Positions 1-58,629 of a stretch of 64,000 nt of DNA are shown here, in pieces. The position numbers were made by a program, and so were the translations under genes. Position 1 is the stretch's first letter, and each line of letters opens with the position of its first letter. The notes beneath the pieces were generated by a model that saw only the letters and a list, made by a program, of their open reading frames with translations, was not told the origin of the DNA and made no database searches. Location: NCBI GenBank assembly GCA_033854175.1, contig JAWOKN010000056.1:3736-67735 (forward strand), given 5' to 3'. This DNA is from Bacteroidota bacterium (GTDB lineage: Bacteria; Bacteroidota; Ignavibacteria; UBA10030; SZUA-254).

Positions 1-434
1 ACTAAGACCATGTTTCCTGCGGAATTGTTTGATTTGATCCCCTATAATGGCAACGCAACCCTGGTTCTGTGGAGATTTCACAGATCCATCGAAGGAGCGT
101 ACATGCACTCCATTACAGATTCAAAAATATATGGGGAGGATCCGGGCGCACGACTTGATCGAATCGACCTTCATAGTGAAGTTCCTGCAGTCAAGTCCTG
201 GAACCTTCAAGCAAAGAAAGCGGTGAGCCGTCAGTCCAAATTCGTGAGCGAGTAAATGGTGTGAGAGAGGATCAAAGAAAAAGATTTCATGGACAAATAG
301 AAGCCTGGACAGGAATTTATAGCAGACATTGTAGAAGTTTTTCGCATACTGGATGTTATCCAAACATTGACAGATCATTGGCTTTTGAGAAACGGATCGA
401 TTATCTTGAATATGAAATCGGAAAGGTACCTGCT

Positions 435-1430
435 TTGACAAAGTATATTATCAGCATTCTTGTGGCTCTCTCCTCGATGAGCACTGACGAACGGGCCTAT
501 GCGAGCTGCGGAGCTGCGAGCTGCCCACTCAATTCATTCTCGCCGCTTCGTGGTGGCTGGCTGCAATTCGGTCTGGCGTATGAGTACATCAATCAGGATC
601 GCATATTTCTTGGATCGTCGGAATCGTACCCTGGAGCAATTCCGGAGGTTCATGACGAGCTCCGCACAATCAATCGGCGGACTCTTTTTCACGCACAGTA
701 CGGACTCTTCGATGGACTCGGCTTAGAAGTGCATGTCCCATTCATCAATCGTGAGCATAGCCACATTGCTCACGATGCAGAAGGCGACAAGGTGGAGTCA
801 TGGGCGTTTAGCGCAGTTGGCGATGTAATCATAAACGGGCAATATGCGCTACTCGTCCCACCAGAGGAGTTCGAGCCGTATCTCAGCGTGGTTGCCGGGA
901 TAAAGCTTCCGACCGGTGCGACTCATGAAGTGAATTCAGGTGGCGAAGAGGCAGAAGTTACAATTCAGCCCGGAACTGGGTCGACAGACGCATTCTTCGG
1001 ACTCAATTACCAACAAACTCTTGCGTCTCTTCCGATGCTCTCTGGTAAATACAGTGCACTGCCGATTATCGCGAATATAACCTTCCAGTTACCGGGACAT
1101 GGAACGCATGATTATCGATTCGGAAATTCTCTCCTTGCACATGTTGGAACCGCATACCGGTTCAGTAATTTTACCAGCATTCTCTTGCAGGTTAACGGAA
1201 AAGTTCAGGATTATGCTGATGTCGGGACGACCGGGGAACCGCGCGAGAACACCGGCGGAACATGGATTTTCCTTAGCCCGGGTCTCGGCCTCCACATATC
1301 CGATGCCTTTGTCGGCAACGCATACCTGCAAATTCCTTTATACCAGAACGTACACGGCATACAGCAAACAGCGGCATACAATTTGGCGTTCAACCTGACG
1401 TATTCGCTCAGTCTCGTTGGGGCCGATTGA
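435..1430 (+). CDS. Signal-peptide-bearing beta-barrel-like (outer-membrane?) protein, family not recognised
   Basis: The ORF track gives 261..1430. An in-frame TTG at 435, preceded by GGAAAGG, gives the N-terminus MTKYIISILVALSSMSTDERAYA, which looks like a signal peptide. The rest is G/Y/F-rich with alternating strands and ends ...AYNLAFNLTYSLSLVGAD, like porin-type barrels. The start is uncertain. Confidence 0.45.
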   Translation: MTKYIISILVALSSMSTDERAYASCGAASCPLNSFSPLRGGWLQFGLAYEYINQDRIFLGSSESYPGAIPEVHDELRTINRRTLFHAQYGLFDGLGLEVHVPFINREHSHIAHDAEGDKVESWAFSAVGDVIINGQYALLVPPEEFEPYLSVVAGIKLPTGATHEVNSGGEEAEVTIQPGTGSTDAFFGLNYQQTLASLPMLSGKYSALPIIANITFQLPGHGTHDYRFGNSLLAHVGTAYRFSNFTSILLQVNGKVQDYADVGTTGEPRENTGGTWIFLSPGLGLHISDAFVGNAYLQIPLYQNVHGIQQTAAYNLAFNLTYSLSLVGAD

Positions 1431-2229: not shown

Positions 2230-2705
2230 TTAGGAGATTTTCATATGCACTGGTGGTCTCAAACCGAGTGATGAGTGGCCGCTCGCACGTTTATAAAATA
2301 TTTTCAGATACCGACAAGATTTCGCCGGTGCACTTCCAATATCTGAAACCTCTACGGGAGAACATGTCGTTTCTTAAGCGTTGCAAAGAAGGATTCAGAC
2401 ATTGCGTTATCGAGGCAGTTTCCCGTGCTGCTCATATTCTGTACGATGCCATTAGTGGTCAGGATTTCTTTGACCCGAGCATCAACATATTGTTTCCCGC
2501 GATCACGGTGAAAAACAATCCTGAAGCGGTCTCTCGTCAGTGCAATGCCATCTGCAGTGCTTCGACGACTGCCTCGGCATGCATGTGAATTGGAAGGAAT
2601 GTGCGAACTTGCGACCGATAGGGACAGGTCCCCCCGCCAAGCTGCCGGTTTCCCGGCAGAATAATCTTTGGACAGGCTCCGACCATCATTCTGAATCCAG
2701 ATGGT
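2230..2705 (-). mobile_element. IS3-family transposase (OrfB/DDE integrase core) remnant, multiply frameshifted and internally deleted
   Basis: Minus-strand translations need at least three frames. They give KPAAWRGDLSLSV (W-x-D-I-T region) and HMHAEAVVEALQMAL (alternate frame). They also give IVFHRDRGKQY (HSDRGxQY) and GIVQNMSSTGNCLDNAMSESFFATLKK (SMSxxGNCxDNAxxESFF). After a premature stop comes YLKIFYKRASGHSSLGLRPPVHMKIS-stop (YNxxRxHSSLGYxxP). No orfA and no terminal inverted repeats were identified. Confidence 0.75.
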
Positions 2706-2889
2706 GGCGGCCTGCGCCTCCTGCATGAAACGAGCCCTATCCTGTTCCGACGCCGAGAGATGGGCCGGAAGGAACTTCAGTGCGACGAACCATCTGAGCT
2801 TGAACCCTCGCGGCCTTATAGACCACTCCCATGCCCCCTTCGTCCAGCTTCTCAAGAACTTTATACCGTGACAGAGTTCGTCCGATCAT
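2706..2889 (-). pseudogene. N-terminal fragment of a Ser/Thr protein kinase, frameshifted and truncated at the IS3 remnant
   Basis: ATG at 2889 gives [26 protein letters not shown] (glycine-rich loop). After a 1-nt frame change the sequence reads GFKLRWFVALKFLPAHLSASEQDRARFMQEAQAA (VALK lysine region). This closely parallels the N-terminus of the intact kinase at 29527 ([62 protein letters not shown]). Confidence 0.7.
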
Positions 2890-3453
2890 GAACATCTCTT
2901 GATGAAATATTGCGATATTCGGCTATTGCGAGAGGCAGGTCGTGAATGAATACCAAATCATCCGCTCTCCGTGATCCTCCCCGGAAACGATTCCCCTAAT
3001 CCACCGAGCGGTGACATAAGTCACCCGGGAATTCCATGATCTTCCGGCAGGACCCTGACGATGTCGGAGTATCCGACCCTTCGGCCCGCCCGAGATGGAT
3101 GACACTGTTGTGCTCCCCCCACAGCCGCGTCATTCTTCCGGCGACCGGAACAAGAAATCAGACAAATGAGTATAGATCGAGTCGTAGCCGTATGATCCAA
3201 CACCCCGGTTTGCCGGCATGAAGAAAACGGGAAGATCTCTGAAGAACGGTGCACGGGGTGCGGCTCTTCACCCAAACAGGTCTCACACTTGAGAGATGTA
3301 GATCCCGATCCCCCCGGAAACCAATCGCACGGGGCAACAGAATATGGTGCGCAATTTGCTCGAACATATGCCGACAGAACCGCGTCCAGATCGGTCGCGG
3401 GTGCGGTCGAAATACCTCATAACATTGCGACCGGAGAGAGAAGGAGTGCGAGT

Positions 3454-5205
3454 ATGGACAAGAATACATATTTTCGCGGAGGCGCCTGTTTTTTTCTGTT
3501 ACCCATTGTTTTCATCCTTTCCCCAACCCACCTACGAGCCCAATCAGCGCTGCCATGCTACGCATGCCACAGCGGGGAGAACGACAACTGGCTGCTCGGC
3601 CGGCATGCAAACACCCAGAAGGACGTCGCAGGCGAGATCGCTGCTAACTGGCAGGGGCAGACGCCAGATTCCGTCATCCACGGCTCGGCTGCGGAGAACT
3701 GTGTAGCATGTCATTCCCCGCTTGCCGTCACGACAAACGGCGGGATGACCGAAACGCAGGTGATGGGACATTACTTCACCACGACCGGCGGTTTCTACAC
3801 TGATTCCACGCAGGCCGCGGATACGGCCAACTGGCCGCATGTCGGCTGCAACACCTGTCATGACGTTCCGTCGAACCATACGAGCCATGTGTTACCGACG
3901 CTTGCGATTTTCAATTCAACGACGGCACAATACGACTCGATGCCGACGACGGCCACGCTCTGCGGACAGTGTCACGGAACGCTGAGATTCGCGGAAACCG
4001 ACCATCGGATATTCGATGCGTGGAAACTCAGCCGGCACGGGCACAGGGGCCAATCGGACGTCGCGGGCGAGCTCGCCGGAAGCTGGGCGGGCAAAACACC
4101 CAATGACGTCATCAACGGGCCCGATGCGGAAAACTGCGTCGCCTGCCATGCTCCGACGGCGGTCGGTCAAAAATCCGGGGACACAACGGAGGTCATGGTC
4201 TTAAGCCGGTTCTTCACGACCTCGGGCGGGCAATTTACTGCAGGAACGGCCCCTTCCGACACGGCCCACTGGCCTGATGTCAGCTGCACCGCATGTCACG
4301 ACCCACATCGGCCGGACACACTTTCGTACTACAACACATCGACGAGGACGTACCAGGTCATGGCCTCATCAAACCAGTTATGCGGCCAATGCCACGGCAA
4401 CCTCAGGTTTGCCGGTACTGACCATTTAAGCTACAACGTGGAAGAAGCCATCGGTGGAGTCGGTGTGGCGGCCCAGGCGACCATGCCCGGCGCCGGGTGC
4501 ACGGATTGTCACATGCACAAGGGTGAAACGGACGGAACAAACTCACTCATGTACAAGGGGCACAGCTGGTCCATCTTCATCCACGAACCGGACAGCAGCA
4601 CAACCGCCTCCTGCACATCATGTCATGCGGGAATGAACGCCGATTCCTCCAAAACGGTCATCGCCGGCTGGAAGGCCGAATTTGCCTCGACGGACTCACT
4701 CGCCCAGTTACGGGTTGCCTCAGCAGACTCGGCGCTGCAGGGAATAACCGATTCCGTCAGGCAGGCATATCTTGCGGAAGCAAAGAGCAACCTGAGTCTT
4801 GCGGAATCGGACGAAAGCGGCGGATTCCACAACCACAAATACAGTATGGCGCTCCTGAACGACGCCATTGCGAAATCGGCACTCATCACCGGAGTAACGA
4901 TGCCGCAGGCGAATCTCCCGCTGCGGTTCGCGTTACATCAGAACTACCCGAATCCCTTCAATCCATCGACCATCATCCGGTATGAGATCCCCCTTGAAAG
5001 CAGAGTGGCCCTGAAGGTCTACAATGTTCTGGGACAGACCGTGGCAATACTGCGGGAGAACGTAGAATCAGCGGGGTACAAAATTGTAGAATGGACTGCG
5101 GCAGGCATGCCAAGCGGCATATACTTCTGTCAGCTCCAGGCAACGAGCACCTCGCATCCCGTCAAGGCCTACAGTCAGGTCATGAAGATGCTTCTTATTA
5201 GATAA
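3454..5205 (+). CDS. Secreted nonaheme c-type cytochrome with T9SS C-terminal sorting domain
   Basis: The ORF is 3289..5205. The best start is ATG 3454, preceded by GAGAGAGAAGGAG, giving the signal peptide MDKNTYFRGGACFFLLPIVFILSPTHLRAQS. There are nine CxxCH motifs: CYACH, CVACH, CNTCH, CGQCH, CVACH, CTACH, CGQCH, CTDCH, CTSCH. The C-terminus reads NYPNPFNPSTIIRYEIP...GIYFCQLQA...MLLIR. Confidence 0.85.
   Translation: MDKNTYFRGGACFFLLPIVFILSPTHLRAQSALPCYACHSGENDNWLLGRHANTQKDVAGEIAANWQGQTPDSVIHGSAAENCVACHSPLAVTTNGGMTETQVMGHYFTTTGGFYTDSTQAADTANWPHVGCNTCHDVPSNHTSHVLPTLAIFNSTTAQYDSMPTTATLCGQCHGTLRFAETDHRIFDAWKLSRHGHRGQSDVAGELAGSWAGKTPNDVINGPDAENCVACHAPTAVGQKSGDTTEVMVLSRFFTTSGGQFTAGTAPSDTAHWPDVSCTACHDPHRPDTLSYYNTSTRTYQVMASSNQLCGQCHGNLRFAGTDHLSYNVEEAIGGVGVAAQATMPGAGCTDCHMHKGETDGTNSLMYKGHSWSIFIHEPDSSTTASCTSCHAGMNADSSKTVIAGWKAEFASTDSLAQLRVASADSALQGITDSVRQAYLAEAKSNLSLAESDESGGFHNHKYSMALLNDAIAKSALITGVTMPQANLPLRFALHQNYPNPFNPSTIIRYEIPLESRVALKVYNVLGQTVAILRENVESAGYKIVEWTAAGMPSGIYFCQLQATSTSHPVKAYSQVMKMLLIR
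3583..4428 (+). repeat. Internal tandem duplication (two ~140-aa triheme units) inside the cytochrome gene
   Basis: The two units align: DNWLLGRHANTQKDVAGEIAANWQGQTPDSVIHGSAAENCVACH... against DAWKLSRHGHRGQSDVAGELAGSWAGKTPNDVINGPDAENCVACH... Each unit carries CVACH, C(N/T)(T/A)CH and CGQCHG(T/N)LRFA(E/G)TDH. Confidence 0.8.
4921..5202 (+). other. T9SS (Por) C-terminal sorting domain of the cytochrome
   Basis: The sequence LRFALHQNYPNPFNPSTIIRYEIPLESRVALKVYNVLGQTVAILRE...SGIYFCQLQA...MKMLLIR matches the pattern of the Por secretion C-terminal domain. Confidence 0.8.
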
Positions 5206-5287: not shown

Positions 5288-5488
5288 TCAGAGCCGGTCA
5301 GGCTTCACCGGGCAGATCGACCGGTAGAAGCAGCCGGTGCATTCAAGCGCCTGGCGGGGAACCACGGTAGTACACCGGGGGCAACGTTCGACGAAAGGAT
5401 TCGTGACCTCGAGATGGCACTGCGGGCAGCGGCGGATTTCCGTGGCAAGTTTCTCCCGGAGGGCCATTTCCGATGCCTTCAGATCCAT
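5288..5488 (-). CDS. Small (66 aa) Cys-rich zinc-ribbon-like protein coupled to feoB
   Basis: ATG 5488 lies 5 nt after the feoB stop. The protein is MDLKASEMALREKLATEIRRCPQCHLEVTNPFVERCPRCTTVVPRQALECTGCFYRSICPVKPDRL (CPxC...CPxC plus CxxC-x5-C). The longer ORF-track version (to 5617) overlaps feoB and is unlikely. Confidence 0.45.
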   Translation of the reverse strand: MDLKASEMALREKLATEIRRCPQCHLEVTNPFVERCPRCTTVVPRQALECTGCFYRSICPVKPDRL

Positions 5489-5493
5489 ACCCG

Positions 5494-7386
5494 TTACATC
5501 ACAAAATGAGACACAACGCCGCCGACAAAAAAGGCCACGACCCAGGTACCGATCCAGATCACCATCCCCTCCCTCCAGCCCCTCTCTTTGAGCATCACCA
5601 TCAGTGAAGCGATGCACGGGACAAAGAGGGTAATGACGATAAGCGAAACGGCAATCTGCATCGGGTTGAGGGACATATGGTACAGACCGGCCGCGCCGAA
5701 ATCTCGGCGGACGACGCCCATAATAAATGCGACAGCGGCCTCCGGGGGCAGCTGGAGCCAGTGGACGACCAGGGGGGTAAGTTCGTGCTCGAGAAGATCC
5801 AGCAAACCGGTAAGCTGTGCGATACCGACCGCGAGTGCGCCCACAAAAAACCAGCCCGAGGCCTCCTTCATGAAATAATATGTCCGGACGGCGGTTTTCC
5901 TGAAGACATTTTCCATACGGGGCAATCTCATCGGCGGGAGATCCAGAAGAAGCGGGGCTGACGAGCCCGGCAGGACCCGGTCGAGCATCGTTCCGATAAG
6001 GACCAGAACGGCAAGGATCACCAGGACATAGACAGCGATCGGGCCCGGGCCCGCACCCGCAAGGAGCGCGGCGATGACGGCCATCTGGGCGGAGCAGGGG
6101 ATGACAAACTGAAGAATTGCGGTGGCAATCGTCTTCTCGCGTTCAGAGCCGAGGAGGCGTGTAGTAATCGTTGCGGAGGTCACGCAGCCGAAGCCGAGAA
6201 TCAGCGGAATGACGGCCCTTCCGTTCAGGCCGAGGTAGGTCAGAATGCGGTCCACCATCGTCGCCAGCCGCGGAAGGTACCCGCTATCCTCCATCAGAGA
6301 AAGAACGATATAGAACGAAATCACGAGCGGAAGCAGAAGAAAAAGAAGATACGTTGTGGTCATGGTCACAACGCCGTAAGGACCGACAAGGAGTGTATAC
6401 CACCATGATGAGGGAGAAATCAGGGTGGCGGTGATCGTGCGGATCCACGGTTCCCAGAGATTGTTACCGATCCGCTGCTCGGTAAAATTCACAACCAGCT
6501 GGGAAACAAACTTTCCGATAAAGAGATAGGCGACATACAATGCGGCGACAAGGATAGGGATCCCCGTGGAGGGCTTCAGGGCCCAGCGGCCGAGCCTGTC
6601 GGAAAACCGTCTTTTCGGGGAAGTATCCTGCATGACCTGGTTCACGAGATAATTCACCCGGTTGCGGCGGCTGATATAAATCTCATCGCGGAGCGTGCCG
6701 GGATTGACGCCGTGGCGCCGGGCGACAAACTGGTCCCCCTCGAGGACCAGCAGGGCCTCGGATTGTGAGCCGACCATGGAAAGGGTCTCATGGAGGTGGC
6801 CGTGGAGTTCCTCGCGCTGGGTCCCCTCGCGGGCGCCCAGGATGGCCTGATCGAGTTTTTCCAGCGTGACGCCGTTCACGGCGGTAACGGGAATGACACT
6901 GACGCCCAAAAAATTCGAAAGCTTCGGAATGTCGATACTGATATGAAAATCCCTCACCTCGTCCATAAAATTCAGCAGCACCGTAATCTTCTTCCCCATA
7001 TCGATCAGCTGCTGGGTCAGAAACAGGTCCCGTTCGAGGTGTGTCGCATCGACAACATTCAGAACAATATCCGCGTCGAGGATGATATCGCGGGCGGCTT
7101 TCTCCTCATCATTAAACGACGAGACCCCATAGATGCCGGGTGTATCGAAGACATCATAATCGCGGTAGGAACCGCAGACAAGTTCGACGGTAGTCCCCGG
7201 ATAATTCGAGACATCGACATTCATACCGGAAAGGGTATTAAAAATGATCGATTTCCCGACATTGGGATTGCCGGCAAGGACAATTTCCACGCGTCCGGTC
7301 TGTTTGCGGGGGGATCTCAGGCCGGGATGCTGGTGTCTATCCGAATGTTCCAGCGGGGGGCGGGATAAAGGATCATCTGGTGTCAT
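5494..7386 (-). CDS. feoB: Ferrous iron transport protein B
   Basis: N-terminal G-domain (GNPNVGKS, DVSNYPGTTVE, DTPG) followed by a long polytopic membrane domain. It overlaps feoA by 14 nt. Confidence 0.95.
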   Translation of the reverse strand: MTPDDPLSRPPLEHSDRHQHPGLRSPRKQTGRVEIVLAGNPNVGKSIIFNTLSGMNVDVSNYPGTTVELVCGSYRDYDVFDTPGIYGVSSFNDEEKAARDIILDADIVLNVVDATHLERDLFLTQQLIDMGKKITVLLNFMDEVRDFHISIDIPKLSNFLGVSVIPVTAVNGVTLEKLDQAILGAREGTQREELHGHLHETLSMVGSQSEALLVLEGDQFVARRHGVNPGTLRDEIYISRRNRVNYLVNQVMQDTSPKRRFSDRLGRWALKPSTGIPILVAALYVAYLFIGKFVSQLVVNFTEQRIGNNLWEPWIRTITATLISPSSWWYTLLVGPYGVVTMTTTYLLFLLLPLVISFYIVLSLMEDSGYLPRLATMVDRILTYLGLNGRAVIPLILGFGCVTSATITTRLLGSEREKTIATAILQFVIPCSAQMAVIAALLAGAGPGPIAVYVLVILAVLVLIGTMLDRVLPGSSAPLLLDLPPMRLPRMENVFRKTAVRTYYFMKEASGWFFVGALAVGIAQLTGLLDLLEHELTPLVVHWLQLPPEAAVAFIMGVVRRDFGAAGLYHMSLNPMQIAVSLIVITLFVPCIASLMVMLKERGWREGMVIWIGTWVVAFFVGGVVSHFVM

Positions 7387-7609
7387 GGGGAACTTCGTCG
7401 ATGACCGTCACGAGAATACTCCGTGCAAGTGTGTGGCCGATAGCGATCTGCTGTCGGTTTTTCTGGAGAACGATGGTTCCGCCCGGGAGGCGTTCCAGGC
7501 ATTTGACGCGCTGCCCTTCATGGATCCCCAGCCGGACGAACTGGGGGTAATAATCGCCGCCGGGGACCGAATGAATCTTCAACAATTGACCGACCTTGGT
7601 TTCGCTCAT
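7373..7609 (-). CDS. feoA: Ferrous iron transport protein A (FeoA domain)
   Basis: MSETKVGQLLKIHSVPGG...RLGIHEGQRVKCLERLPGGTIVLQKNRQQIAIGHTLARSILV is a FeoA SH3-like domain. The ORF-track start (GTG 7678) coincides with the predicted sigma54 transcription start, so ATG 7609 is preferred. ATG 7645 and 7672 are alternatives. Confidence 0.8.
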   Translation of the reverse strand: MSETKVGQLLKIHSVPGGDYYPQFVRLGIHEGQRVKCLERLPGGTIVLQKNRQQIAIGHTLARSILVTVIDEVPHDTR

Positions 7610-7686
7610 AGAGACGGGTTTCTTGCGGCTCTTCTTGTCAGTCATGATATCATATCGATTAAATTCAAACATACTCACCTATTATC

Positions 7687-7810: not shown

Positions 7811-9139
7811 TCAGAGTAAAGAGAGTGCTTTCTGAAGATCATAAATGATATCCTCGGGATCCTCGAGGCCGATGGAAAGGCGCAGACCGCCCGGATCGAG
7901 TCCCCTTTCGAGCTGTTCGTCGAGCGGGAAAGCCGAATGCGTCATCGAGCTCGGATGTTCGACCAGAGTTCTGATCTGGCCGAGGCTGACTGCAAGGGTA
8001 ATCGTATAGGCATTATGGGCGAGGGCATTAATAAACCTTTCGCCCTGGTCGTGCCGTTCCTTCGGTGTAGAACCGTGGAGGACAAAATAGAGGAGTGTGC
8101 CGGGGGAGAAATTCCCCTTATAGTCGCGCATCTGTTTCCGGGCAAGTTTAAACTGCGGAAACGAGGGTAATCCGGGATACCGGACGAAGGCGACGCGGGG
8201 CTCCTTCCGCAGGAATTCAGCCACCCGGTAGGTGCTCTCGATCTGCTGGCGGATACGGGTTGAAAGACTCGGGAGGCCATAGACCAGTATAGGCCAGGCG
8301 CTCTTAGCTGACAGTGTGCCGCCGAAATCCTTCCGGTAAAGGAGGAGCCGGTCATAGGACCAGCGGGGACCGACAACGACGCCCCCCATATCGGTGCCGA
8401 AACCGCAGATCCCCTTTGTAAGAGAATCGACGACAAAATCGGCACCCAATGTCAGGGGACGCTGGCAGAAGGGGGTGGCGAAGGTATTATCGATGACCAG
8501 ATAGATCTTCCTTTCGGGGGATCTCCGGCGGTTCGCGCGGCGGATAATGCCGGCAATCGCGCCGATATCGATAAGATCCAGAGTCGGGTTCACGGGGGAC
8601 TCAAAATAGACGACGCGGGTGCGGTCGGTGATCTTCCGTTCAAGGTTTGCGGGTTTTCTCAGATCGACATAGGCCGTAGTGATCGTATACCGCGGGTACC
8701 AGTTAAGGAGAAGCGAATAGGTACAGCCGTACAAAACGGGGTGGGCGATAATTTCATCGGCGGTGCCGGTAAGTGTGCCGAGGACGGCCGAGATGGCTGC
8801 CATACCGGTCGCAAAAGTCACGGCCACCTCGCCCTGTTCGGCGTCGGCGAGGTTTTCCTCGAGGATCTCCTTATTCGGTTCGCCGAGGCGGTCATAGATA
8901 TAGATCGGGGCGCACGATGCAATCTTTCTGATTCCGTCGTGGTGGGCGAACTCTGCGAACCCCTGAGCGCCGCGCCGGGCGGTATCGAGGCGGAACGTCG
9001 AGGAGGAGGAAAGGGGCGGGACGACATGGTGGTTATAGTCCCACTTCTTGCTCGAGGCCTTTCCATAAATAAGGCGCGTCTGCATTGAATACGGGCGCGC
9101 CTGATGTTTTTTACCTTTCTTCGGGCGTAAGGATTTCAT
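7811..9139 (-). CDS. Cys/Met-metabolism PLP-dependent enzyme (methionine gamma-lyase / cystathionine gamma-synthase / O-acylhomoserine sulfhydrylase family)
   Basis: Family motifs are present: FESPVNPTL, VVDSLTKGICGFGTDMGG (S-x-T-K PLP lysine) and RLSIGLEDPEDII. An ATGA start/stop overlap links it to the upstream gene. Confidence 0.85.
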   Translation of the reverse strand: MKSLRPKKGKKHQARPYSMQTRLIYGKASSKKWDYNHHVVPPLSSSSTFRLDTARRGAQGFAEFAHHDGIRKIASCAPIYIYDRLGEPNKEILEENLADAEQGEVAVTFATGMAAISAVLGTLTGTADEIIAHPVLYGCTYSLLLNWYPRYTITTAYVDLRKPANLERKITDRTRVVYFESPVNPTLDLIDIGAIAGIIRRANRRRSPERKIYLVIDNTFATPFCQRPLTLGADFVVDSLTKGICGFGTDMGGVVVGPRWSYDRLLLYRKDFGGTLSAKSAWPILVYGLPSLSTRIRQQIESTYRVAEFLRKEPRVAFVRYPGLPSFPQFKLARKQMRDYKGNFSPGTLLYFVLHGSTPKERHDQGERFINALAHNAYTITLAVSLGQIRTLVEHPSSMTHSAFPLDEQLERGLDPGGLRLSIGLEDPEDIIYDLQKALSLL

Positions 9140-10125
9140 TTTTTCGTCTCATGTTGTTCCGGAACGGGATCTGACAGAAGCAGTTCCCTGACCGTAGGGC
9201 AGGAGAGAACCTCCGATCGGAGTTTGGCCAGAACCTCCGAGTTATACCAGATCTCCCTGAAATTATAATTATTCTCGCGGAGTTCGCCGCACGGGGTGCC
9301 GAGTGAGGCGCAGGGCTGGACCGAGCCTGTAGGCGAGATGAAGATAAAGCTCCTTCCGGCGAGGCACCAGTGGGTCCACTCGACGCGGACCTTATGATTC
9401 TCCTGTTCCCCGTTTCCCTCACCCGGTGCCGCAACATCATGGAGGCCGTATTTGATGCACTGGGGAGAAAAATACATCCCCTTCGGGCTCAGGCGTTTAA
9501 TCTGGGCGATCTTCGATATGAACTGGCCGATAAACTGGTCGGTATCGGCGTCCTGATCCTTCTCCGGAAGGAGGGCGGCGTCCCACGCCAGGTGGCAGTA
9601 GAGACCGTTTGCGGACTTCTGGAGTGCAAAGTCATGTTCAAAGGCCAGCTGGCGGGTATCGGGCTTATGGATACTGCTCCCGAGGTGGATTTCGTAGCCC
9701 GCCTTCTTGAGCCGCCGGATGCTGTTTTCCAGCGCCTGAAACTGCGTCGATTGCTTGAAACGGGTATCCATATCCTCGGTGATCGCGCCATCCAGGAGAA
9801 GGCGGAAAACCTTGGGGCCGAAGATGACATACTTCTCGATCATTTCGTCGGTCAGCTCCTGGGGTGCGACCTCGATAATCATCTTCAGGCCGAGGGCGAA
9901 CCCGTATTCGACAATCTGAAAAAGATCGGGGCGTTCGGCGACCTTTCTGCCGGTGAGGACGATAATCGGTTTTGCGATGCGGGCGATGCTGTCGATGATC
10001 AGGAGGCATTCATGGGTAGTAAGGACATCGGGCTCTCCGGGTGTTTTTTTCCTTGAAAGCTGCCAGACGATCATCCTGGGGAAAAAATCCTCTTCTTCGC
10101 GGTGGCTGTGTGCTGGACCCTGCAT
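9136..10125 (-). CDS. Radical-SAM/SPASM-like protein lacking the CX3CX2C cluster motif (probable pseudoenzyme or non-radical homologue)
   Basis: It has a TIM-barrel-like core (IIVLTGRKVAERPDLFQIVEYGFALGLKMIIE...RLLLDGAI...ENSIRRLKKAGYEIHLGSSI). The C-terminus is SPASM/twitch-like (CLAGRSFIFISPTGSVQPCASLGTPCGELRENNYNFREIWYNSEVLAKLR...C). The N-terminus MIVWQLSRKKTPGEPDVLTTHE has no cysteine where CxxxCxxC belongs, and GGEP is replaced by TGRK. Confidence 0.6.
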   Translation of the reverse strand: MQGPAHSHREEEDFFPRMIVWQLSRKKTPGEPDVLTTHECLLIIDSIARIAKPIIVLTGRKVAERPDLFQIVEYGFALGLKMIIEVAPQELTDEMIEKYVIFGPKVFRLLLDGAITEDMDTRFKQSTQFQALENSIRRLKKAGYEIHLGSSIHKPDTRQLAFEHDFALQKSANGLYCHLAWDAALLPEKDQDADTDQFIGQFISKIAQIKRLSPKGMYFSPQCIKYGLHDVAAPGEGNGEQENHKVRVEWTHWCLAGRSFIFISPTGSVQPCASLGTPCGELRENNYNFREIWYNSEVLAKLRSEVLSCPTVRELLLSDPVPEQHETKK

Positions 10126-10146
10126 AAAAAATCTCCTAAGAACGAG

Positions 10147-10533
10147 TTATGATGAACGTGATCTGGAACGGCGTGAAGCATGATGAACCGCTTCGATAGT
10201 TTCGACGACAAGGGGAAAATAGCGTTCGAGGGCGCACTCCTCGTCCTCGCGCAGCTGGCAATGCCCCGAGGCGGACTGGAACGTGCATTCGGTGCAGACG
10301 ATCATATGCAGTTCGCGGAGATACCTCTCCATCGAATCCGCCTGCAGGTTTCCGACGATCTGGACGATGCGGGGAAGCTGGGTCTGGAGGGGGCAGTCGA
10401 ACTCGGCATCCAGCCGGCAGTTCCCGTGCCCGTCGCCGTCGAGGCAGACCCTGCAGACCTTCTCGCGGACGGCCTGCCAGTAGGCGTGTGCATCCTGGCG
10501 GGGGCGTTTTTCAGACCGCAATTTTCTTGCCAT
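10147..10533 (-). CDS. Cys-rich protein, paralogue B (two C-x2-C-x8-C-x7-C modules)
   Basis: VCRVCLDGDGHGNCRLDAEFDCPLQTQLPRIVQIV ... VCTECTFQSASGHCQLREDEECALERYFPLVVETIEAV. It is a paralogue of 10511..10852 and overlaps it by 23 nt. Confidence 0.6.
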   Translation of the reverse strand: MARKLRSEKRPRQDAHAYWQAVREKVCRVCLDGDGHGNCRLDAEFDCPLQTQLPRIVQIVGNLQADSMERYLRELHMIVCTECTFQSASGHCQLREDEECALERYFPLVVETIEAVHHASRRSRSRSS

Positions 10534-10852
10534 TATTCTTCACCGTCTCGATAATTTCGACAACAAGGGGGAAGTAGCGGTCGAGGGCGCACTCCAGTTT
10601 ACTCCTCTTCCCGCAGAAAAGGTCGGGGGTCTGGAAATCGCAGTTTGCGCAGACAGTTTTCCTCAGGGCCGTGACATAGTCCCGGATATCGGGGGAATCG
10701 ACGGCAGTGACCGACTGGACAATCTCGGGTAAAAAGTGTTTCAGGGGACATTCCTCACCGGCGGGGAGGCGGCAAAGGCCCGTGCCGTCGCCGTCCACGC
10801 ACTTCCTGCAAATCCGGTTTTGGATCACCGGCCACAACTGATCGAGTTTCAT
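10511..10852 (-). CDS. Cys-rich protein, paralogue A (two C-x2-C-x8-C-x7-C modules)
   Basis: ATG 10852 is preceded by AAGGTGGTG. The protein is MKLDQLWPVIQNRICRKCVDGDGTGLCRLPAGEECPLKHFLPEIVQSV...VCANCDFQTPDLFCGKRSKLECALDRYFPLVVEIIETV. The ORF-track start 10951 is an upstream extension. Confidence 0.65.
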   Translation of the reverse strand: MKLDQLWPVIQNRICRKCVDGDGTGLCRLPAGEECPLKHFLPEIVQSVTAVDSPDIRDYVTALRKTVCANCDFQTPDLFCGKRSKLECALDRYFPLVVEIIETVKNNGKKIAV

Positions 10853-10901
10853 ACGCACCACCTTTCGCAAAAACGTGATATAAGAACAATAACAGTGTGA
10901 A

Positions 10902-11171
10902 TTATGATTGTACATCGTCAAAACGGGCCCTGATCTGATCGAGGACCTCAAACTTGCCCCGCAGGGTTTCCTTAGTCTTCTCGAGCAGTTCGATCGACTT
11001 CTTCTTATTAATGATCAGCTCATTGAGGATAGCCTTGACATCGGGGTAGGTGCAAGCGTCGCGATAAAAGGCATACTGGAGGATCGCCTCCTTTTCCGTC
11101 GTACTTGCAAATTCCAGGGCATTGCACAACTCCCTGCATGATTGAACACAGTTCGGTTTTGTTTGCGGCAT
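10902..11171 (-). CDS. Small (89 aa) helical protein, function unknown
   Basis: ATG 11171 is preceded by AGGAGGATCAC and lies 10 nt after the gamma-subunit stop. The protein is MPQTKPNCVQSCRELCNALEFASTTEKEAILQYAFYRDACTYPDVKAILNELIINKKK..., a helical sequence with an E-x-x-A-x-x-x-Y ferritin-like flavour. No family assigned. Confidence 0.5.
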   Translation of the reverse strand: MPQTKPNCVQSCRELCNALEFASTTEKEAILQYAFYRDACTYPDVKAILNELIINKKKSIELLEKTKETLRGKFEVLDQIRARFDDVQS

Positions 11172-27713: not shown

Positions 27714-27732
27714 TCTTTCAAAGGAACTAGCC

Positions 27733-28767
27733 ATGGAAGCACTCTGGTTCTGGATCATCGCCCTGATGATCGTCGTCTACGTGATCCTGGACGGGTTCGA
27801 TCTCGGGATAGGGGTCATATACTTCCTGATAACCAAAAACGACAGCGAGCGGTCGCTGTTATTGAAGACCATCGCGCACGTATGGGACGGAAACGAAGTC
27901 TGGCTTCTGGCCGGGGGCGGCGTATTATTCCTGGCATTCCCGGCGGTCTATGCGGCATCGTTCAGCGGATTCTACCTCCCCCTGATGATCGTCCTATGGC
28001 TTCTGATGCTGCGCGGCGGAGGAATCGAACTCCGGCATTACGTCCATCATCCGCTCTGGAGAAAATTCTGGGACAGAACATTTTCCGTCTCGAGCCTTCT
28101 TCTGGCGATATTTCTGGGCGCCGCACTGGGTAATGTCGTACGGGGAGTCCCGCTGACACGTGAGGGATACTTCTTCGAGCCGCTCTGGACGACCTTCACG
28201 GTTGTGCCGGAGGCGGGGATACTCGACTGGTTCACGGTCATGATGGGACTGGTGGCGCTGGCGACGCTGACACTGCACGGGGCCGTCTATGTCAGCATGA
28301 AAACGACGGGAGAAATCCAGGCACGGGCGCGGACAATCGGACAGTGGGTCTGGTGGATTGCGTTATTCATGTCCGTCGACATGTTCATCGCGACCTGGAC
28401 CATTCACCCGGATCTCTGGGCGAACTACGCCGAGCATGCGGGGGGATTCATCCTCCCGGTGGGCGGGGTGGCGGGGATACTCGCGACCTATATCGCCATC
28501 GTGCGGAAAAAGGACACGGCTGCATTTTGTTTCTCGACGCTCTACATCATTTCCATGCTGGCGGCGACGGCATTTGCGGTCTATCCGAACCTGTTATTGG
28601 CATCCACGCAGAAGGAATACTCGCTCACGATCTACAACTCGGCCGCCCGGAGTTACGGACTGGGGGCAGCGCTCTACTGGTGGATACCGGGAATTCTGCT
28701 CGCCGCGCTCTACTTCACATATCTTTTCAGGACATTCCGGGGGAAGGTACAACCCTCGGAGGAATAA
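27733..28767 (+). CDS. cydB: Cytochrome bd-type quinol oxidase subunit II
   Basis: ATG 27733 gives MEALWFWIIALMIVVYVILDGFDLGIG... The ORF-track start 27631 overlaps cydA. Confidence 0.9.
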   Translation: MEALWFWIIALMIVVYVILDGFDLGIGVIYFLITKNDSERSLLLKTIAHVWDGNEVWLLAGGGVLFLAFPAVYAASFSGFYLPLMIVLWLLMLRGGGIELRHYVHHPLWRKFWDRTFSVSSLLLAIFLGAALGNVVRGVPLTREGYFFEPLWTTFTVVPEAGILDWFTVMMGLVALATLTLHGAVYVSMKTTGEIQARARTIGQWVWWIALFMSVDMFIATWTIHPDLWANYAEHAGGFILPVGGVAGILATYIAIVRKKDTAAFCFSTLYIISMLAATAFAVYPNLLLASTQKEYSLTIYNSAARSYGLGAALYWWIPGILLAALYFTYLFRTFRGKVQPSEE

Positions 28768-32575: not shown

Positions 32576-32625
32576 TAAGTGATGGGTGAATAAATAAGCA
32601 CGCAAGGACAGAAGGAGCAGTGAAA

Positions 32626-33303: not shown

Positions 33304-33305
33304 CG

Positions 33306-35323: not shown

Positions 35324-35328
35324 TTGTC

Positions 35329-36252: not shown

Positions 36253-36278
36253 CGGAGAGAAGCCAAATCTCCGTTTTT
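36253..36278 (+). terminator. Rho-independent terminator of the four-gene operon
   Basis: CGGAGA-gaagccaaa-TCTCCG followed by T5. Confidence 0.6.
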
Positions 36279-56381: not shown

Positions 56382-58472
56382 TTATTTCACGAGCAGCATT
56401 GTTTCTGTCTTCGTATACTCTCCCGCCTGCAAGCGGTAGAAATAAGGTCCACTCGGCAACTCCGCGGCACTGAATGTTCTCGCATAGACCCCGGCCGCCA
56501 ACCTCTCCCTGTCGATCATCGTCCCCACCAGCTGACCCAGCAGATTAAACACCTTCAACGTAACGACCGATTGTTTCGGAAGGCCAAACGCAATTGTGGT
56601 TGATGGGTTAAAGGGATTGGGATAATTTCGCGACAGATAAAATCGCGCTGGCAGGGGATCGTGGGCGGGTTCAATCCCCGTCATCATCTCCGACAATGGA
56701 CGTCTCCACACCCCGCTCGTCACCGTTCCTGCGAAAAGGTTTCCATTATTCACAGCAAAAGCATAAACCGTCGTATTCGGCATTCCCAGATTGACCTGGG
56801 TCCAGTACACCCCGTCGTTCGTCGAAAGAAAAATCCCGCTGTCACTTCCCGCAAAGATATTCAACACGCCCCCTCCCTGAATCGTCAAGAGCGACCTTAT
56901 GTTGAAATTTGTCAGGCCTGAATCGGCAGGAACCCAGCTCCCACCGTTATTCGTTGAACAAAAAACCCCCCCGCCCAGTGTGCCGGCAAAAAGGCGTGTT
57001 TCGGTACCGGCAAGAGCGCGCACGTCCAGATTCGACAGATTTGAACTGACATCGGTCCAGCTCGTTCCATTATTTGTGGAGAGGAAAACGCCACCGCCGG
57101 ATGTCCCTGTAAACAAATTTGTCCCCCCGCCCCCGTCGGGGACAACGGCAAACGAGCGTATTATGGAATTCGTCAGGCCAGAATCGGCCGCACTCCAGCT
57201 CGTTCCATTATTCGTCGAGAGAAACACGCCGCCTCCGGAGCTACCCGCAAAGACAGTGCCACCGCTCACAGCGAGGGAACTGAAGAGGGGATAGATCAGG
57301 CCCGAATCAACAGGGATCCATTCCGTCCCATTATTGGTGGAGAGAAAAACCCCGCTGCGCGCTGCGGCAAAGAGATTCGTACCGCTCGACGCAAGGGCGG
57401 AGATATACACGTCGTACAGTCCGGAACTCGCCGGGGACCAGTTCAACCCGCCGTCGGTGGTGCGAAATACGCCGTTACCGGATGTTCCCGCGAAAACATT
57501 TATTCCATCGGAGGAAAGAGCCCTCACCGAGGTATTCGTCAGACCTGAGCTGGCAGAGCTCCAGCTTGTCCCATCATCCGTGGAAAGATAGACCCCACCG
57601 CCATACGTGCCGGCAAAAAGATTCGTTCCGTTGACGGCAATCGAATAGACCGAACCGTTGATCAAACCCGAATCCACCGACACCCAGTTTTTCCCGCTGT
57701 TTGTTGACCGGAAGACGCCAGTACCGCCGCCTGCGTACAACGCCGTCCCTTTTGAAGCAAGAGTTCTAACATACGGATTCCATAAATCTGAATCGGCGCG
57801 GGTCCAATTTTGACCGTTATTGGTGGAAACACATACACCGCCGCCCCAGGTACCGGCAAAAAGATATGAACCGCTGACGGTCAGGGTACCCACTTGGGAA
57901 TTTGTCAGTCCGGAGTTAACAGCAGTCCAGGCGGATCCGTTGTTCGTAGAACGAAAAACCCCATTGTTCATCGTCCCGGCAAATATGTTCACCCCGTTGA
58001 CACCGAGGGCAAGAATGGATGAATCGGTCAATCCTCCGCTCGCAGACGTCCAGGTAAGCCCATTATTGGTCGACCGGAAGACTCCGCTCCCGGATGTTCC
58101 CGCGAAGATACTCGTTCCATTCACAGCCAGGGACGATACAAACATGTTCCAGAGGCCGGAATTCCGTCCGGTCCATGTCGCCCCGTTATCCGTGGAAAGA
58201 AAAACACCGCCTCCGCGGGTACCCGCAAAGATATTCGTGCCGCTCAGGGCGAATGAATAGACATACATACTGCTCAGACCAGAGGGAGTCCACGTCGAGC
58301 CGGTATTTGTGGAATGAAAAATCCCGTTATCAGTCCCCGCGAAAAGATCTGCACCATTAACGGCTATGGCATACACATCGCCGCCAAAGGGACCGTTCGT
58401 CTGCACCCATTGAGCTTCAAGCTGATTCACCACAAAAGAGAATAAACACAGAAATGATACCATTCGCAGCAT
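56382..58472 (-). CDS. Secreted 13-repeat BNR/Asp-box-like beta-propeller protein with T9SS C-terminal sorting domain
   Basis: ATG 58472 is preceded by AAGGAGGG and gives the signal peptide MLRMVSFLCLFSFVVNQLEAQ. There are thirteen units of the type GVF-x-STNNG-x-x-W-x(6)-GL-x(10)-G-x-x-(L/I)FAGT. The C-terminus reads NYPNPFNPSTTIAFGLP...GPYFYRLQAG...MLLVK. Confidence 0.85.
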   Translation of the reverse strand: MLRMVSFLCLFSFVVNQLEAQWVQTNGPFGGDVYAIAVNGADLFAGTDNGIFHSTNTGSTWTPSGLSSMYVYSFALSGTNIFAGTRGGGVFLSTDNGATWTGRNSGLWNMFVSSLAVNGTSIFAGTSGSGVFRSTNNGLTWTSASGGLTDSSILALGVNGVNIFAGTMNNGVFRSTNNGSAWTAVNSGLTNSQVGTLTVSGSYLFAGTWGGGVCVSTNNGQNWTRADSDLWNPYVRTLASKGTALYAGGGTGVFRSTNSGKNWVSVDSGLINGSVYSIAVNGTNLFAGTYGGGVYLSTDDGTSWSSASSGLTNTSVRALSSDGINVFAGTSGNGVFRTTDGGLNWSPASSGLYDVYISALASSGTNLFAAARSGVFLSTNNGTEWIPVDSGLIYPLFSSLAVSGGTVFAGSSGGGVFLSTNNGTSWSAADSGLTNSIIRSFAVVPDGGGGTNLFTGTSGGGVFLSTNNGTSWTDVSSNLSNLDVRALAGTETRLFAGTLGGGVFCSTNNGGSWVPADSGLTNFNIRSLLTIQGGGVLNIFAGSDSGIFLSTNDGVYWTQVNLGMPNTTVYAFAVNNGNLFAGTVTSGVWRRPLSEMMTGIEPAHDPLPARFYLSRNYPNPFNPSTTIAFGLPKQSVVTLKVFNLLGQLVGTMIDRERLAAGVYARTFSAAELPSGPYFYRLQAGEYTKTETMLLVK
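56385..56645 (-). other. T9SS C-terminal sorting domain of the repeat protein
   Basis: RFYLSRNYPNPFNPSTTIAFGLPKQSVVTLKVFNLLGQLVGTMID...SGPYFYRLQAGEYTKTETMLLVK. Confidence 0.8.
56690..58400 (-). repeat. Tandem coding repeats (~41-47 aa period, 13 copies)
   Basis: The motif S-T-(N/D)-(N/D/G)-G-x-x-W recurs 13 times at a regular spacing of roughly 125-140 nt. Confidence 0.8.
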
Positions 58473-58629
58473 AAACCCTCCTTGCACCATGCATTTGACC
58501 CATGAGATCGGAAATAAACAGTAACCCCTCTGCCCCCGGGAATTTACATCTGCAATCCACCATTATACTACGGGACGAACATGGAAGTTCCACGGATAGG
58601 AAAATATTTTTCACGCCCATGAAGCTTTG

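Follow-up and report, generated by a model that had tools for sequence, protein, structure and literature searches.

A nonaheme cytochrome of the OcwA/OmhA branch with a type IX sorting domain: a candidate surface oxidoreductase for extracellular electron transfer

The gene at 3454..5205 (+) of the window, by which we mean the whole 64-kb stretch of DNA that was analysed, encodes a nonaheme c-type cytochrome that profile and fold comparisons place, within the NrfA-type multiheme superfamily, on the OcwA/OmhA branch. Our preferred reading, held with moderate confidence, is that this protein is an OcwA/OmhA-type terminal oxidoreductase that is exposed at the surface and serves extracellular electron transfer, and which reaches its location via secretion by the type IX system (T9SS).

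Surface multiheme cytochromes provide the contact between cells and minerals or electrodes, and those that have been characterised come from a few Proteobacteria (the Mtr and Omc proteins, which are exported by the T2SS) and from two Gram-positive thermophiles (OcwA and OmhA).

Results

Gene start, signal peptide and heme attachment sites

The gene lies within a longer open reading frame (3289..5205, +) and specifies a product of 583 aa. Translation is assigned to ATG 3454 because Met1 is nearly invariant in the family alignment (n = 47), and direct reading of the sequence revealed a Shine-Dalgarno-like AGGAG at 3442..3446 (+), 7 nt 5' of this codon. A scan for promoters and terminators gave nothing above background.

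A signal peptide, as had been proposed in the original prediction, was recognised, putatively of the Sec type, at aa 1–29 (3454..3540, +) by inspection, Kyte-Doolittle hydropathy and family conservation. Its n-region carries K3 and R8, its hydrophobic core spans aa 9–22 with hydropathy values of up to 3.1, and its c-region leads into conserved residues around the predicted cleavage site, with A29 retained in 33/47, Q30 in 37/47 and S31 in 38/47 relatives. In the structure model aa 4–22 form a helix, the signal-peptide region being of low pLDDT. Judging from these sequence features, the peptide is likely cleaved after A29, between LRA and QS, which would leave an N-terminal Gln.

All nine of the CxxCH motifs that had been claimed were located, at aa 35, 83, 132, 170, 228, 278, 310, 349 and 387, while shuffled versions of the same 583-aa protein averaged 0.03 such motifs and never had more than one. 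The motif scan of this protein found no CxxCK, CX15CH or CX17CH, and all nine heme sites are canonical.

Domain architecture and internal triheme repeat

The heme 1 motif, CYACH (aa 35–39; 3541..3582, +), precedes the first repeat, and its residues C35, C38 and H39 are invariant. It is followed by two triheme units that were delimited by self-alignment and conservation. Unit A (aa 44–184; 3583..4005, +) binds hemes 2–4 (C83, C132 and C170) and contains, in addition, invariant His residues at positions 51 and 142 and the motif LRFxxTDH, which ends at H184; unit B (aa 188–324; 4015..4425, +) binds hemes 5–7 (C228, C278 and C310) and possesses the corresponding His 195 and His 285 together with an LRFxxTDH motif ending at H324. 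The two units share 50% identity (72/143; pairwise E 3e-51) and three CxxCH motifs each, in agreement with the tandem duplication of about 140 aa that had been noticed earlier. As each triheme unit has exactly three conserved extra His residues, all hemes could be bis-His ligated, to the extent that this can be read from the sequence, a point that counts against the preferred reading.

Profile alignment and conservation define a diheme segment (aa 325–395; 4426..4638, +) that accommodates hemes 8 and 9 (C349 and C387) and in which M354 and H370 are invariant; comparison of the family profile with OcwA and NrfA identifies this segment as the counterpart of NrfA hemes 4–5. A three-helix bundle (aa 396–479; 4639..4890, +) comes next, its helices being modelled at aa 396–427, 434–451 and 461–479. 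It contains an invariant ESDESGGFHNH, the two His residues of which are H459 and H461, and aligns with OcwA 430–495 and with the helical bundles of NrfA. A flexible linker (aa 480–497; 4891..4944, +), with pLDDT below 50 at aa 482–486, joins this core to the C-terminal domain.

By virtue of the internal repeat, hemes 2 and 5 are equivalent, and H184 is the repeat equivalent of H324. The family profile aligns D323-H324 with a His-His pair of OcwA at SEQRES positions 351/352, which are taken to be the H380/H381 of the OcwA papers on the assumption of a numbering offset of 29; this pair is thus HH in OcwA and DH in the present protein. In OcwA, hemes 2 and 5 are 5-coordinate and lie in near-identical environments (PMC6703420). 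Each of these 5-coordinate hemes of OcwA has a non-bonding distal His (H282 and H381), and ligation of OcwA heme 9 is His-Met.

OcwA as the nearest characterised relative

Homology and structure comparison, which had been suggested as a check, identified OcwA as the nearest solved structure by both profile and Foldseek. When the family profile was run against PDB sequences, OcwA (6i5b) ranked first (E 6.6e-19, 70.8 bits; profile positions 266–471 against OcwA 301–495), with NrfA (1.5e-9), ONR (2.1e-5) and MccA (4rkm; 0.011) at lower ranks, and Foldseek placed OcwA (E 1.8e-7 over 456 columns) before OmhA (3.1e-6) and then ONR. It was the family profile only that reached OcwA, a single-sequence phmmer search of the PDB sequences returning nothing at E<=1.

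OcwA is a surface-exposed nonaheme cytochrome that reduces iron oxides and electrodes (PMC6703420), and the idea of extracellular electron transfer, already part of the original prediction, gains weight because this surface terminal reductase is the nearest characterised relative. The in vivo role of OcwA is based on localisation and in vitro activity, with no knockouts (PMC6703420).

OcwA (TherJR_2595 of Thermincola potens, PDB 6I5B) shares with the gene product nine CxxCH motifs and a C-terminal three-helix bundle, although identity over structural alignments amounts to merely about 18–24%. The two proteins differ in several further respects. The present protein belongs to a diderm host and carries a C-terminal sorting domain (CTD) for export by the T9SS, whereas OcwA is associated with a Gram-positive cell wall; its triheme halves are still 50% identical, whereas a repeat is not mentioned in the OcwA papers examined. 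Hemes 1 and 3 are 97 aa apart, compared to about 139 in OcwA, and the model shows nothing beyond short hairpins at aa 149–162. Since the segment between hemes 1 and 3 is about 40 residues shorter, the N-terminal beta-sheet domain of OcwA (OcwA aa 75–156) is probably missing. OmhA (Carboxydothermus ferrireducens, PDB 6QVM) is an S-layer undecaheme protein of a monoderm host that has an unrelated N-terminal diheme extension and does not possess a CTD.

Comparison with reductases and other multiheme families

The relatives of this protein are often automatically named nitrite reductase (c552). With respect to the earlier question of whether it is a member of a known reductase family, it does fall within the wider NrfA/ONR/MccA/OcwA superfamily, but the defining reductase features are absent.

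These features bear on the main alternative, namely that the protein is chiefly a catalytic reductase of soluble nitrite, hydroxylamine, NO, sulfite, tetrathionate or peroxide, with hemes 2 and 5 as active sites, and that the T9SS places this enzyme at the surface to detoxify or respire an external substrate. We regard both parts of this proposal as unlikely, though with a real chance of being correct. All characterised members of the superfamily act as reductases of nitrite or NO in vitro (PMC9250108), and OcwA itself reduces nitrite and hydroxylamine (PMC6703420). Moreover, R178/R318, T182/T322, D183/D323 and H184/H324 hardly vary, each being kept in 45 to 47 of 47 relatives, which exceeds what axial ligation alone would require. 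PF02335 matches above its cut-off (49.8 bits), its best stretch covering only profile positions 78–188 of 438. Against a catalytic role, however, stand the lack of CxxCK and the replacement of the NrfA catalytic Tyr, as the NrfA segment CGQCHVEYYF reads CGQCHG(T/N)LRF here with Leu/Arg at the Tyr position. Where the NrfA equivalog PRK11125 demands 595 bits, the protein attains 12.4, and for NrfB it attains 15.3 of the 166.6 demanded; the CX15CH of MccA is absent, and neither nrfH nor nrfBCD is found near the gene. Amplification of the triheme unit to three or four copies, described below, also suits extension of a wire more than a tuned active site.

Identity with NrfA was rejected given the nine hemes, the absent CxxCK, the replaced Tyr and an equivalog score far under its cut-off. 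While NrfA (pentaheme) and ONR (octaheme) are periplasmic, the nonaheme protein studied here is predicted to be secreted and has no nrf partners; ONR membership was likewise rejected on the features tested. The octaheme sulfite reductase MccA was discarded since CX15CH/CX17CH are lacking and the profile E-value against 4rkm is 0.011. In the case of MtrC, OmcA and UndA, the four-domain, two-beta-barrel architecture of staggered-cross decaheme lipoproteins was not found and membership was dismissed, a PF22113 match of 52.6 bits in the gene product being noted in the same comparison. For c7-type proteins, the TIGR04257 score of 15.2 bits fell short of the cut-off of 40.

In Geobacter, triheme c7 polymers of the GSU1996 type increase their heme number by tandem triheme modules, as is the case here; the present module, however, is of the c554/NrfA type and does not have the c7 fold.

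Sorting domain and export

The protein terminates in a T9SS type A CTD (aa 498–583 plus the stop codon; 4945..5205, +) that runs from QNYPNPFNPST to KMLLIR. The original assignment of this domain was upheld, as it passes both curated cut-offs (TIGR04183, 33.7 bits against 23; PF18962, 29.2 bits against 27), ends at the stop codon and is modelled as a beta-sandwich that resembles the solved T9SS CTDs 8qb1 and 8glk_D. In combining a Sec signal with a terminal beta-sandwich CTD of 70–90 aa, the protein is similar to canonical T9SS type A cargo such as gingipains, mirolase, NucA and CAZymes, yet the passenger here, in place of a hydrolase or adhesin, is a redox protein with covalently bound hemes.

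At 56382..58490 (-) the window encodes another type A cargo, a BNR/sortilin-like protein with a length of 702 aa (PF18962, 33.0 bits; TIGR04183, 34.1 bits), which shows this sorting signal to be in use in the organism. Judged by the relatives of its RsgA, the source organism is also related to the Ignavibacteriales, an FCB lineage for which Por-sorted proteins have been documented (PMC3534657), and this relationship was counted in favour of T9SS export.

It is conceivable that this host makes no use of the CTD for export and that the protein is instead a periplasmic electron carrier, a proposal that we consider very improbable. It is favoured by the absence of the T9SS core genes porK/L/M/N, sov and porU/V from the 64-kb window. 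To our knowledge, holo-cytochromes have never yet been demonstrated as T9SS cargo. Literature searches likewise retrieved no description of T9SS-sorted multiheme cytochromes, and the word 'cytochrome' is absent from a 2023 review on the effectors of the T9SS (PMC10202324). This proposal is countered by retention of the CTD in 110/121 of the closest family members (the best 120 and one cluster member), by the curated cut-offs that the domain passes, by the second CTD cargo nearby and by the occurrence of other sorting or anchoring devices in those relatives where the CTD is missing.

Family size, cassette copy number and sorting devices

Grouped at 90% identity, the family falls into more than 3,200 clusters; it is tight (about 50% identity or more) and is hosted mostly by Ignavibacteria, Calditrichota and Bacteroidota. 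One of its members comes from an isolate, Melioribacteraceae strain 4301-Me (GCA_041538185.1, locus L084). Its members possess two, three or four copies of the triheme unit, corresponding to 9, 12 or 15 hemes. The extra units are recent copies, since they are 74–99% identical within one protein compared to 46–49% between units A and B, the old pair. We read the triheme unit as an evolvable cassette by which the heme wire would be lengthened, and its variable copy number represents a new finding.

For comparative purposes, 80 loci were obtained from a metagenome scan employing the family alignment. Among the near-complete family ORFs of the fetched loci, a CTD motif was detected in 45/70, a lipobox-like motif, mostly accompanied by a Pro/Thr-rich linker, in 15/70 and a C-terminal domain that ends in FYRLRP in 4/70, and from these counts it follows that the core has repeatedly been combined with a means of sorting or anchoring. 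The existence of one core with differing devices (CTD, lipobox with linker, and FYRLRP) is also new here. A lipobox alone is no proof of surface exposure.

Genomic neighbourhood

Clustering of 625 neighbouring ORFs did not reveal a conserved operon partner, be it a porin, a periplasmic cytochrome, a quinol oxidase or feoAB, and beside the gene itself there is neither a porin nor a multiheme cytochrome of the periplasm nor a quinol oxidase. Across 78 loci there was no conserved partner, and only 10 of them contained a second multiheme cytochrome gene. Two-component regulators, located within three genes in 20/65 loci, were the sole recurring type of neighbour and were heterogeneous; in Melioribacter-type loci the system is a divergent one of the OmpR type. 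Some family members have respiratory genes of the EET type as neighbours, which counts for the preferred reading. In two related loci (L009 and L010) the family gene is followed by genes for a beta-barrel-like protein and for a cytochrome with 12 hemes, and in two others (L053 and L063) it is situated beside a fusion of a CbcL-like multiheme protein and cytochrome b561. An upstream beta-barrel-like ORF (261–1430, 389 aa) was considered as a partner and rejected, as it has no family match and its adjacency is not conserved.

Directly downstream of the gene lie feoB (5494–7386) and feoA (7373–7678), an arrangement that invites the suggestion that the cytochrome is an assimilatory extracellular ferric reductase making Fe(II) for the adjoining FeoAB transporter. 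This suggestion must be deemed the least probable of those considered here, as the adjacency occurs in none of the other fetched loci, and the cytochrome gene and feoBA, being convergent, do not form an operon.

The window also encodes a cytochrome bd oxidase (26376–28767), a potential electron sink were the protein to function in the reverse direction, that is, in electron uptake from Fe(II), reduced minerals or cathodes, or in interspecies transfer from partner cells. Such a role is compatible with the reversibility of multiheme chains and with the fact that anode biofilms and communities that cycle iron harbour Ignavibacteria (PMC7399161). We nevertheless consider it improbable: no Cyc2- or MtoAB-type genes are located nearby and the nearest characterised relatives are reductases, while the sequence itself fixes no direction.

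The gene had further been described as adjoining a decayed IS element and as a possible horizontal acquisition. An IS3-like transposase remnant that consists only of the C-terminal part of the integrase core is indeed present at 2352..2855 (-), although its PF00665 (rve) match is weak (E 1.1e-4, 22.9 bits) and lies below the cut-off of 32.6. The composition of the gene (GC 57.5%, GC3 68.5%, codon-usage distance 0.069) matches the window means (GC 55.2+/-3.1%, GC3 65.9+/-9.3%, codon-usage distance 0.080+/-0.023), and the AT-richer stretch is limited to about positions 1–2300. Recent horizontal acquisition is not supported by composition.

Discussion

Our preferred reading, a surface-exposed terminal oxidoreductase, would entail the following course of events. 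The precursor would pass through the inner membrane by the Sec pathway and acquire its hemes in the periplasm, after which the folded holoprotein would be recognised via its CTD and conveyed through the T9SS translocon; the CTD would then be removed, and the protein would either become attached to the cell surface or be set free. In this extracellular location, electrons would travel along a main heme chain, probably in the order 1-3-4-6-7-8-9, with hemes 2 and 5 as equivalent side branches, each of which would face an invariant R...T-D-H pocket. The putative homologues of these pockets in OcwA are its open distal ones, and hemes 2 and 5 may serve for electron exit or substrate binding. Respiratory electrons would pass to acceptors that are insoluble or bulky, be they Fe(III)/Mn(IV) minerals, humics, shuttles of the flavin type or partner cells, and a side activity on small N- or S-oxides is possible.

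The decahemes MtrC, OmcA and UndA of Shewanella are functional analogues that the T2SS exports across the outer membrane as terminal reductases, and by analogy the T9SS would here assume the role of the T2SS for MtrC and OmcA. The original prediction had portrayed T9SS delivery as a route unlike the porin-cytochrome systems, a view that conflates export of a protein with passage of electrons across the outer membrane. The T9SS accounts for protein export and not for electron supply, for which an outer-membrane conduit or a shuttle is still required; electrons would arrive via such a separate conduit or shuttle that is not encoded beside the gene.

More tentatively, and with doubt outweighing confidence, we propose that the T9SS may be a general export route for folded, covalently heme-loaded multiheme cytochromes, that OcwA-type nonaheme proteins may form a 'redox skin' on Ignavibacteria, Calditrichota and many Bacteroidota, that the triheme unit may act as a plug-in cassette and that the core may be portable by exchange of its sorting device. 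The variable-copy triheme cassette offers a natural experiment on the lengthening of heme wires.

A 2022 evolutionary study described OcwA and OmhA as 'very poorly represented', with two and four sequences, respectively (PMC9250108); in contrast, the same architecture is represented here by more than 3,200 clusters, mostly from the FCB group and with a T9SS tag. If our reading is correct, redox cofactor proteins would constitute a new class of T9SS cargo, and the gene would serve as a marker by which reduction of iron, manganese or humics could be assigned to Ignavibacteria, Calditrichota and Bacteroidota that live in sediments, aquifers and anode biofilms. It would, furthermore, remedy a widespread mis-annotation as nitrite reductase c552 that inflates the DNRA potential inferred from metagenomes. 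Should the notion of a redox skin also hold true, abundant lineages of sediments and the subsurface would possess a hitherto unrecognised capacity for extracellular electron transfer.

Gene and protein anatomy

The cytochrome gene lies in the single long open frame of its region on the + strand (3289..5205), where an ATG at 3454 stands 7 nt after AGGAG (3442-3446), and its 583-aa product (3454..5205) starts with a Met1 that is almost invariant in the family alignment. Nine CxxCH motifs were located (aa 35, 83, 132, 170, 228, 278, 310, 349 and 387), against a mean of 0.03 in composition-matched shuffles of the same protein, while a motif scan of the product detected neither CxxCK nor long-spacer heme motifs. 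Residues 1-29 resemble a Sec signal peptide with predicted cleavage between LRA and QS, the A-Q-S triplet at this site being the consensus of the 47-sequence alignment. Pairwise comparison of aa 44-184 (unit A) with aa 188-324 (unit B), which carry three heme motifs apiece, gave 50% identity (E 3e-51), and aa 498-583 form a type IX secretion system (T9SS) type A C-terminal sorting domain (CTD), matched by TIGR04183 at 33.7 bits (cut-off 23) and by PF18962 at 29.2 bits (cut-off 27). All elements of the original prediction, namely signal peptide, nine CxxCH motifs, triheme duplication and CTD, are therefore borne out at the positions given there. Three further His residues in each unit (51, 142 and 184 in A; 195, 285 and 324 in B) are conserved in 46 or 47 of the 47 sequences.

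Gln30 (3541-3543) directly follows the predicted cleavage site and is Gln in 37/47 family members, matching the 'Q-rule' (N-terminal pyroglutamate) of Bacteroidetes secreted proteins (PMC5837995).

Relationship to OcwA and predicted heme layout

A confident AlphaFold2 model (mean pLDDT 88.7), built without hemes from the 47-sequence alignment, presents a mainly helical heme-binding region and three long helices at 396-427, 434-451 and 461-479. A disordered linker at 482-486 leads to a beta-sandwich at the C-terminus. Foldseek ranked OcwA first (E 1.8e-7), followed by OmhA, the undecaheme of Carboxydothermus ferrireducens (3.1e-6), and then by the reductases ONR and NrfA. A single-sequence search of PDB sequences returned no match, and the family profile retrieved OcwA (6.6e-19), NrfA (1.5e-9), ONR (2.1e-5) and the sulfite reductase MccA (0.011). 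The comparison with multiheme families that had been proposed to check the cytochrome thus places OcwA nearest by both profile and fold. Pfam PF22113 also matched above threshold; since MtrC- or OmcA-type structures were absent among the listed matches, this is attributed to generic heme packing.

OcwA, a nonaheme exposed at the surface of Thermincola potens, combines a c554-like tetraheme part, an NrfA-like pentaheme part and a three-helix bundle (PMC6703420). Its hemes 2 and 5 are 5-coordinate and occupy near-identical solvent-exposed pockets with a His-His pair over each; besides iron oxides, electrodes and flavins, it can reduce nitrite and hydroxylamine in vitro (PMC6703420). A rival explanation is that the present protein is a catalytic reductase of small molecules. 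Relatives are often labelled 'ammonia-forming cytochrome c nitrite reductase subunit c552' in source annotations. An NrfA-type identity was rejected, as the protein has nine hemes versus five and no CxxCK, the catalytic-Tyr segment CGQCHVEYYF aligns to CGQCHG(T/N)LRF, the score with the equivalog model is 12.4 bits (cut-off 595), and neither nrfH nor nrfBCD was found nearby. Within the Pfam Cytochrom_C552 match, the stretch with the highest score spans only profile positions 78-188 of 438.

Hemes 2 and 5 of the window protein are the first hemes of units A and B and, as they open the two repeats, are equivalent by descent. In the alignment with OcwA, the invariant D323-H324 falls on the HH pair at SEQRES 351/352. 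We equate this pair with H380/H381 of the published numbering, assuming an offset of 29; H184 is the repeat equivalent of H324. The ligation pattern of cytochrome c554 was used as the template for heme assignments. On this template, the His preceding each unit would ligate the middle heme of its own unit and the His after the middle heme would ligate the last heme of the preceding unit; we infer that the main chain runs 1-3-4-6-7-8-9 and that hemes 2 and 5 branch off it, each towards the invariant R...T-D-H. H184 and H324 would be either iron ligands, making all hemes bis-His, or residues above an open site as in OcwA.

Family size and the triheme cassette

A search of 5.8 billion clustered proteins, in which 8,000 candidates were scored, yielded at least 3,208 family matches at E<=1e-3. 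The best 120 share 45-70% identity, and their named sources are Bacteroidota, Ignavibacteria/Chlorobi, Calditrichota and 'FCB group' MAGs. A 50%-identity-clustered library held only 23 representatives at E<=1e-30, many of them fragments, followed by a gap down to matches at ~30% identity, and the family is thus large yet tight. In the set of 121 nearest members, made up of the best 120 and one cluster member, a CTD motif occurs together with 8-9 hemes in 110; the other 11 are without CTD and carry 12 or 15 hemes.

Unit-by-unit comparison between species gave 53-68% identity for A with A and 53-72% for B with B, against 46-49% for A with B inside one protein; this grouping of like units across species indicates an old A/B duplication. 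In the 12- and 15-heme forms, the additional units are recent copies of the B type, with 74-99% identity inside one protein (units 3 and 4 of P0002, 99%; units 2 and 3 of P0084, 90%). Given these two layers of duplication, the triheme unit behaves as an amplifiable cassette.

Sorting devices and proposed mechanism

Sorting and anchoring devices were surveyed in 70 near-complete family ORFs from 84 fetched loci. The CTD motif is present in 45, a lipobox-like motif (LAAC, LVGC, LIGC and similar) replaces it in 15, mostly with a Pro/Thr-rich linker of roughly 20-45 residues after it, and a terminal domain of ~55 aa ending in FYRLRP occurs in four ORFs and in protein P0103; the remaining six have no clear assignment. 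The same device-swap logic holds for a 644-aa gammaproteobacterial form and a 781-aa form. The CTD-less L052, L063, L069, L070 and P0103 share the C-terminal pattern …ISWTG.GTLQ…G.W.DV.GA.NP…FYRLRP, a domain that looks like a different, uncharacterised sorting or anchoring module. A conserved redox core joined to lineage-specific devices argues that placement beyond the periplasm belongs to the core's function, and counts against the rival explanation of a periplasmic electron carrier; a lipobox alone is no proof of surface exposure.

In the proposed mechanism, the precursor would be exported by Sec and receive its hemes in the periplasm, whereupon the T9SS would recognise the CTD, translocate the folded holoprotein and have the CTD cut off, leaving the mature protein attached to the surface or released. 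Outside the cell, the heme chain would pass electrons to minerals, humics, shuttles or partners; electron uptake by the cytochrome is a rival explanation. The T9SS transports folded cargo and the CTD is removed afterwards, and we infer that it accepts a nine-heme holoprotein. The T9SS accounts for the protein's placement, as the T2SS does for MtrC, whereas the electron route across the outer membrane is a separate matter.

No T9SS core genes were found within the 64-kb window, which encodes a second T9SS type A cargo at 56382-58490(-), a 702-aa BNR/sortilin-like beta-propeller protein with a CTD (TIGR04183, 34.1 bits). Melioribacter roseus, an isolate of the Ignavibacteria, has documented Por-sorted CAZymes (PMC3534657).

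Genomic neighbourhood

The gene content of the window is that of an unremarkable chromosomal region from a facultative or strict anaerobe: PFOR, 2-oxoacid:ferredoxin oxidoreductase subunits, a malic enzyme/PTA fusion, cytochrome bd oxidase, glutamate and alanine dehydrogenases, feoAB and regulators. Among the relatives of its RsgA, those with an organism name are all from Ignavibacteriales MAGs (67-68% identity). Clustering of 625 neighbouring ORFs from 84 sources revealed no conserved partner gene. Two-component systems of several kinds lie at most three genes away in 20/65 loci, and a divergent OmpR-type response regulator (222 aa)/histidine kinase (476-477 aa) pair, absent in the window, stands directly upstream in L025, L028, L031-L033, L059 and L084, recurring in Melioribacter-type loci that include Melioribacteraceae strain 4301-Me.

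Another multiheme cytochrome is nearby in 10/78 loci. Fusions of a multiheme part (9-11 c-type hemes) with cytochrome b561 adjoin CTD-less members in L053 (669-2693, -) and L063 (2429-4315, +), and resemble CbcL, the Geobacter inner-membrane quinol oxidase. Downstream of the CTD cytochrome in L009 (7434-9763), and likewise in L010, a 436-aa beta-barrel-like protein (no Pfam match) and a 340-aa 12-heme cytochrome may constitute a porin-cytochrome conduit.

The feoAB genes of the window adjoin the cytochrome gene in convergent orientation. The adjacency would suit the rival explanation of assimilatory iron reduction feeding Feo, but it was not seen at other loci. A 66-aa double zinc-ribbon ORF (5288-5488, -), which starts 6 nt past the feoB stop and ends 83 nt from the cytochrome stop, may encode a small Feo-associated protein.

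Two further regions were noted. At 32620-39344(+), genes for a GcvH-like protein, an HmcB/HybA-like FeS protein, an HmcC/NrfD-like membrane subunit and a second GcvH-like protein precede a HAMP histidine kinase and a sigma-54 response regulator, an unusual cluster that may be a quinone-linked redox module. At 9136-10951(-), two paralogous Cys-rich ORFs (128 and 146 aa; two C..C…C…C repeats each), for which no family match was found, have a radical SAM/SPASM gene and a Cys/Met PLP enzyme gene directly upstream.

Composition and the left end

Horizontal acquisition had been suggested from the position of the gene beside a decayed IS element in an AT-richer left end. The gene is typical of the window in GC (57.5% vs 55.2+/-3.1%), GC3 (68.5% vs 65.9+/-9.3%) and codon-usage distance (0.069 vs 0.080+/-0.023), and recent acquisition is thus not supported. 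A weak IS3-like integrase-core remnant does exist, a 167-aa ORF at 2352-2855(-) with the C-terminus …GNCLDNAMSESFFATLKK… (rve 22.9 bits, below cut-off). Low GC is limited to ~1-2300. In this stretch, a 389-aa ORF at 261-1430(+) has a signal-like segment, a beta-barrel-like pattern, a His-rich EHSHIAHD and 49% GC; it has no Pfam/NCBIfam match and is absent beside the cytochrome at other loci. Variable neighbourhoods among relatives and at least 50% identity across phyla suggest mobility on a longer time scale.

Novelty and significance

Some family members are already auto-annotated as 'T9SS type A sorting domain-containing protein'. One paper assigns OcwA to a subclade of Gram-negative nonahemes (PMC7829351). 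An evolutionary study of the superfamily found no more than two sequences of OcwA and four of OmhA (PMC9250108), and cytochromes go unmentioned in a 2023 review of T9SS effectors (PMC10202324). A full-text literature search, with subscription-only literature outside it, found no paper treating T9SS together with multiheme proteins and, judged largely by titles and abstracts, none linking type IX secretion to extracellular electron transfer. What we rate as new is an OcwA-type, predicted surface cytochrome fitted to diderm FCB bacteria via the T9SS, with a triheme cassette of variable copy number. The claim is directly testable and, if true, would widen both the cargo range of the T9SS and the lineages capable of extracellular electron transfer.
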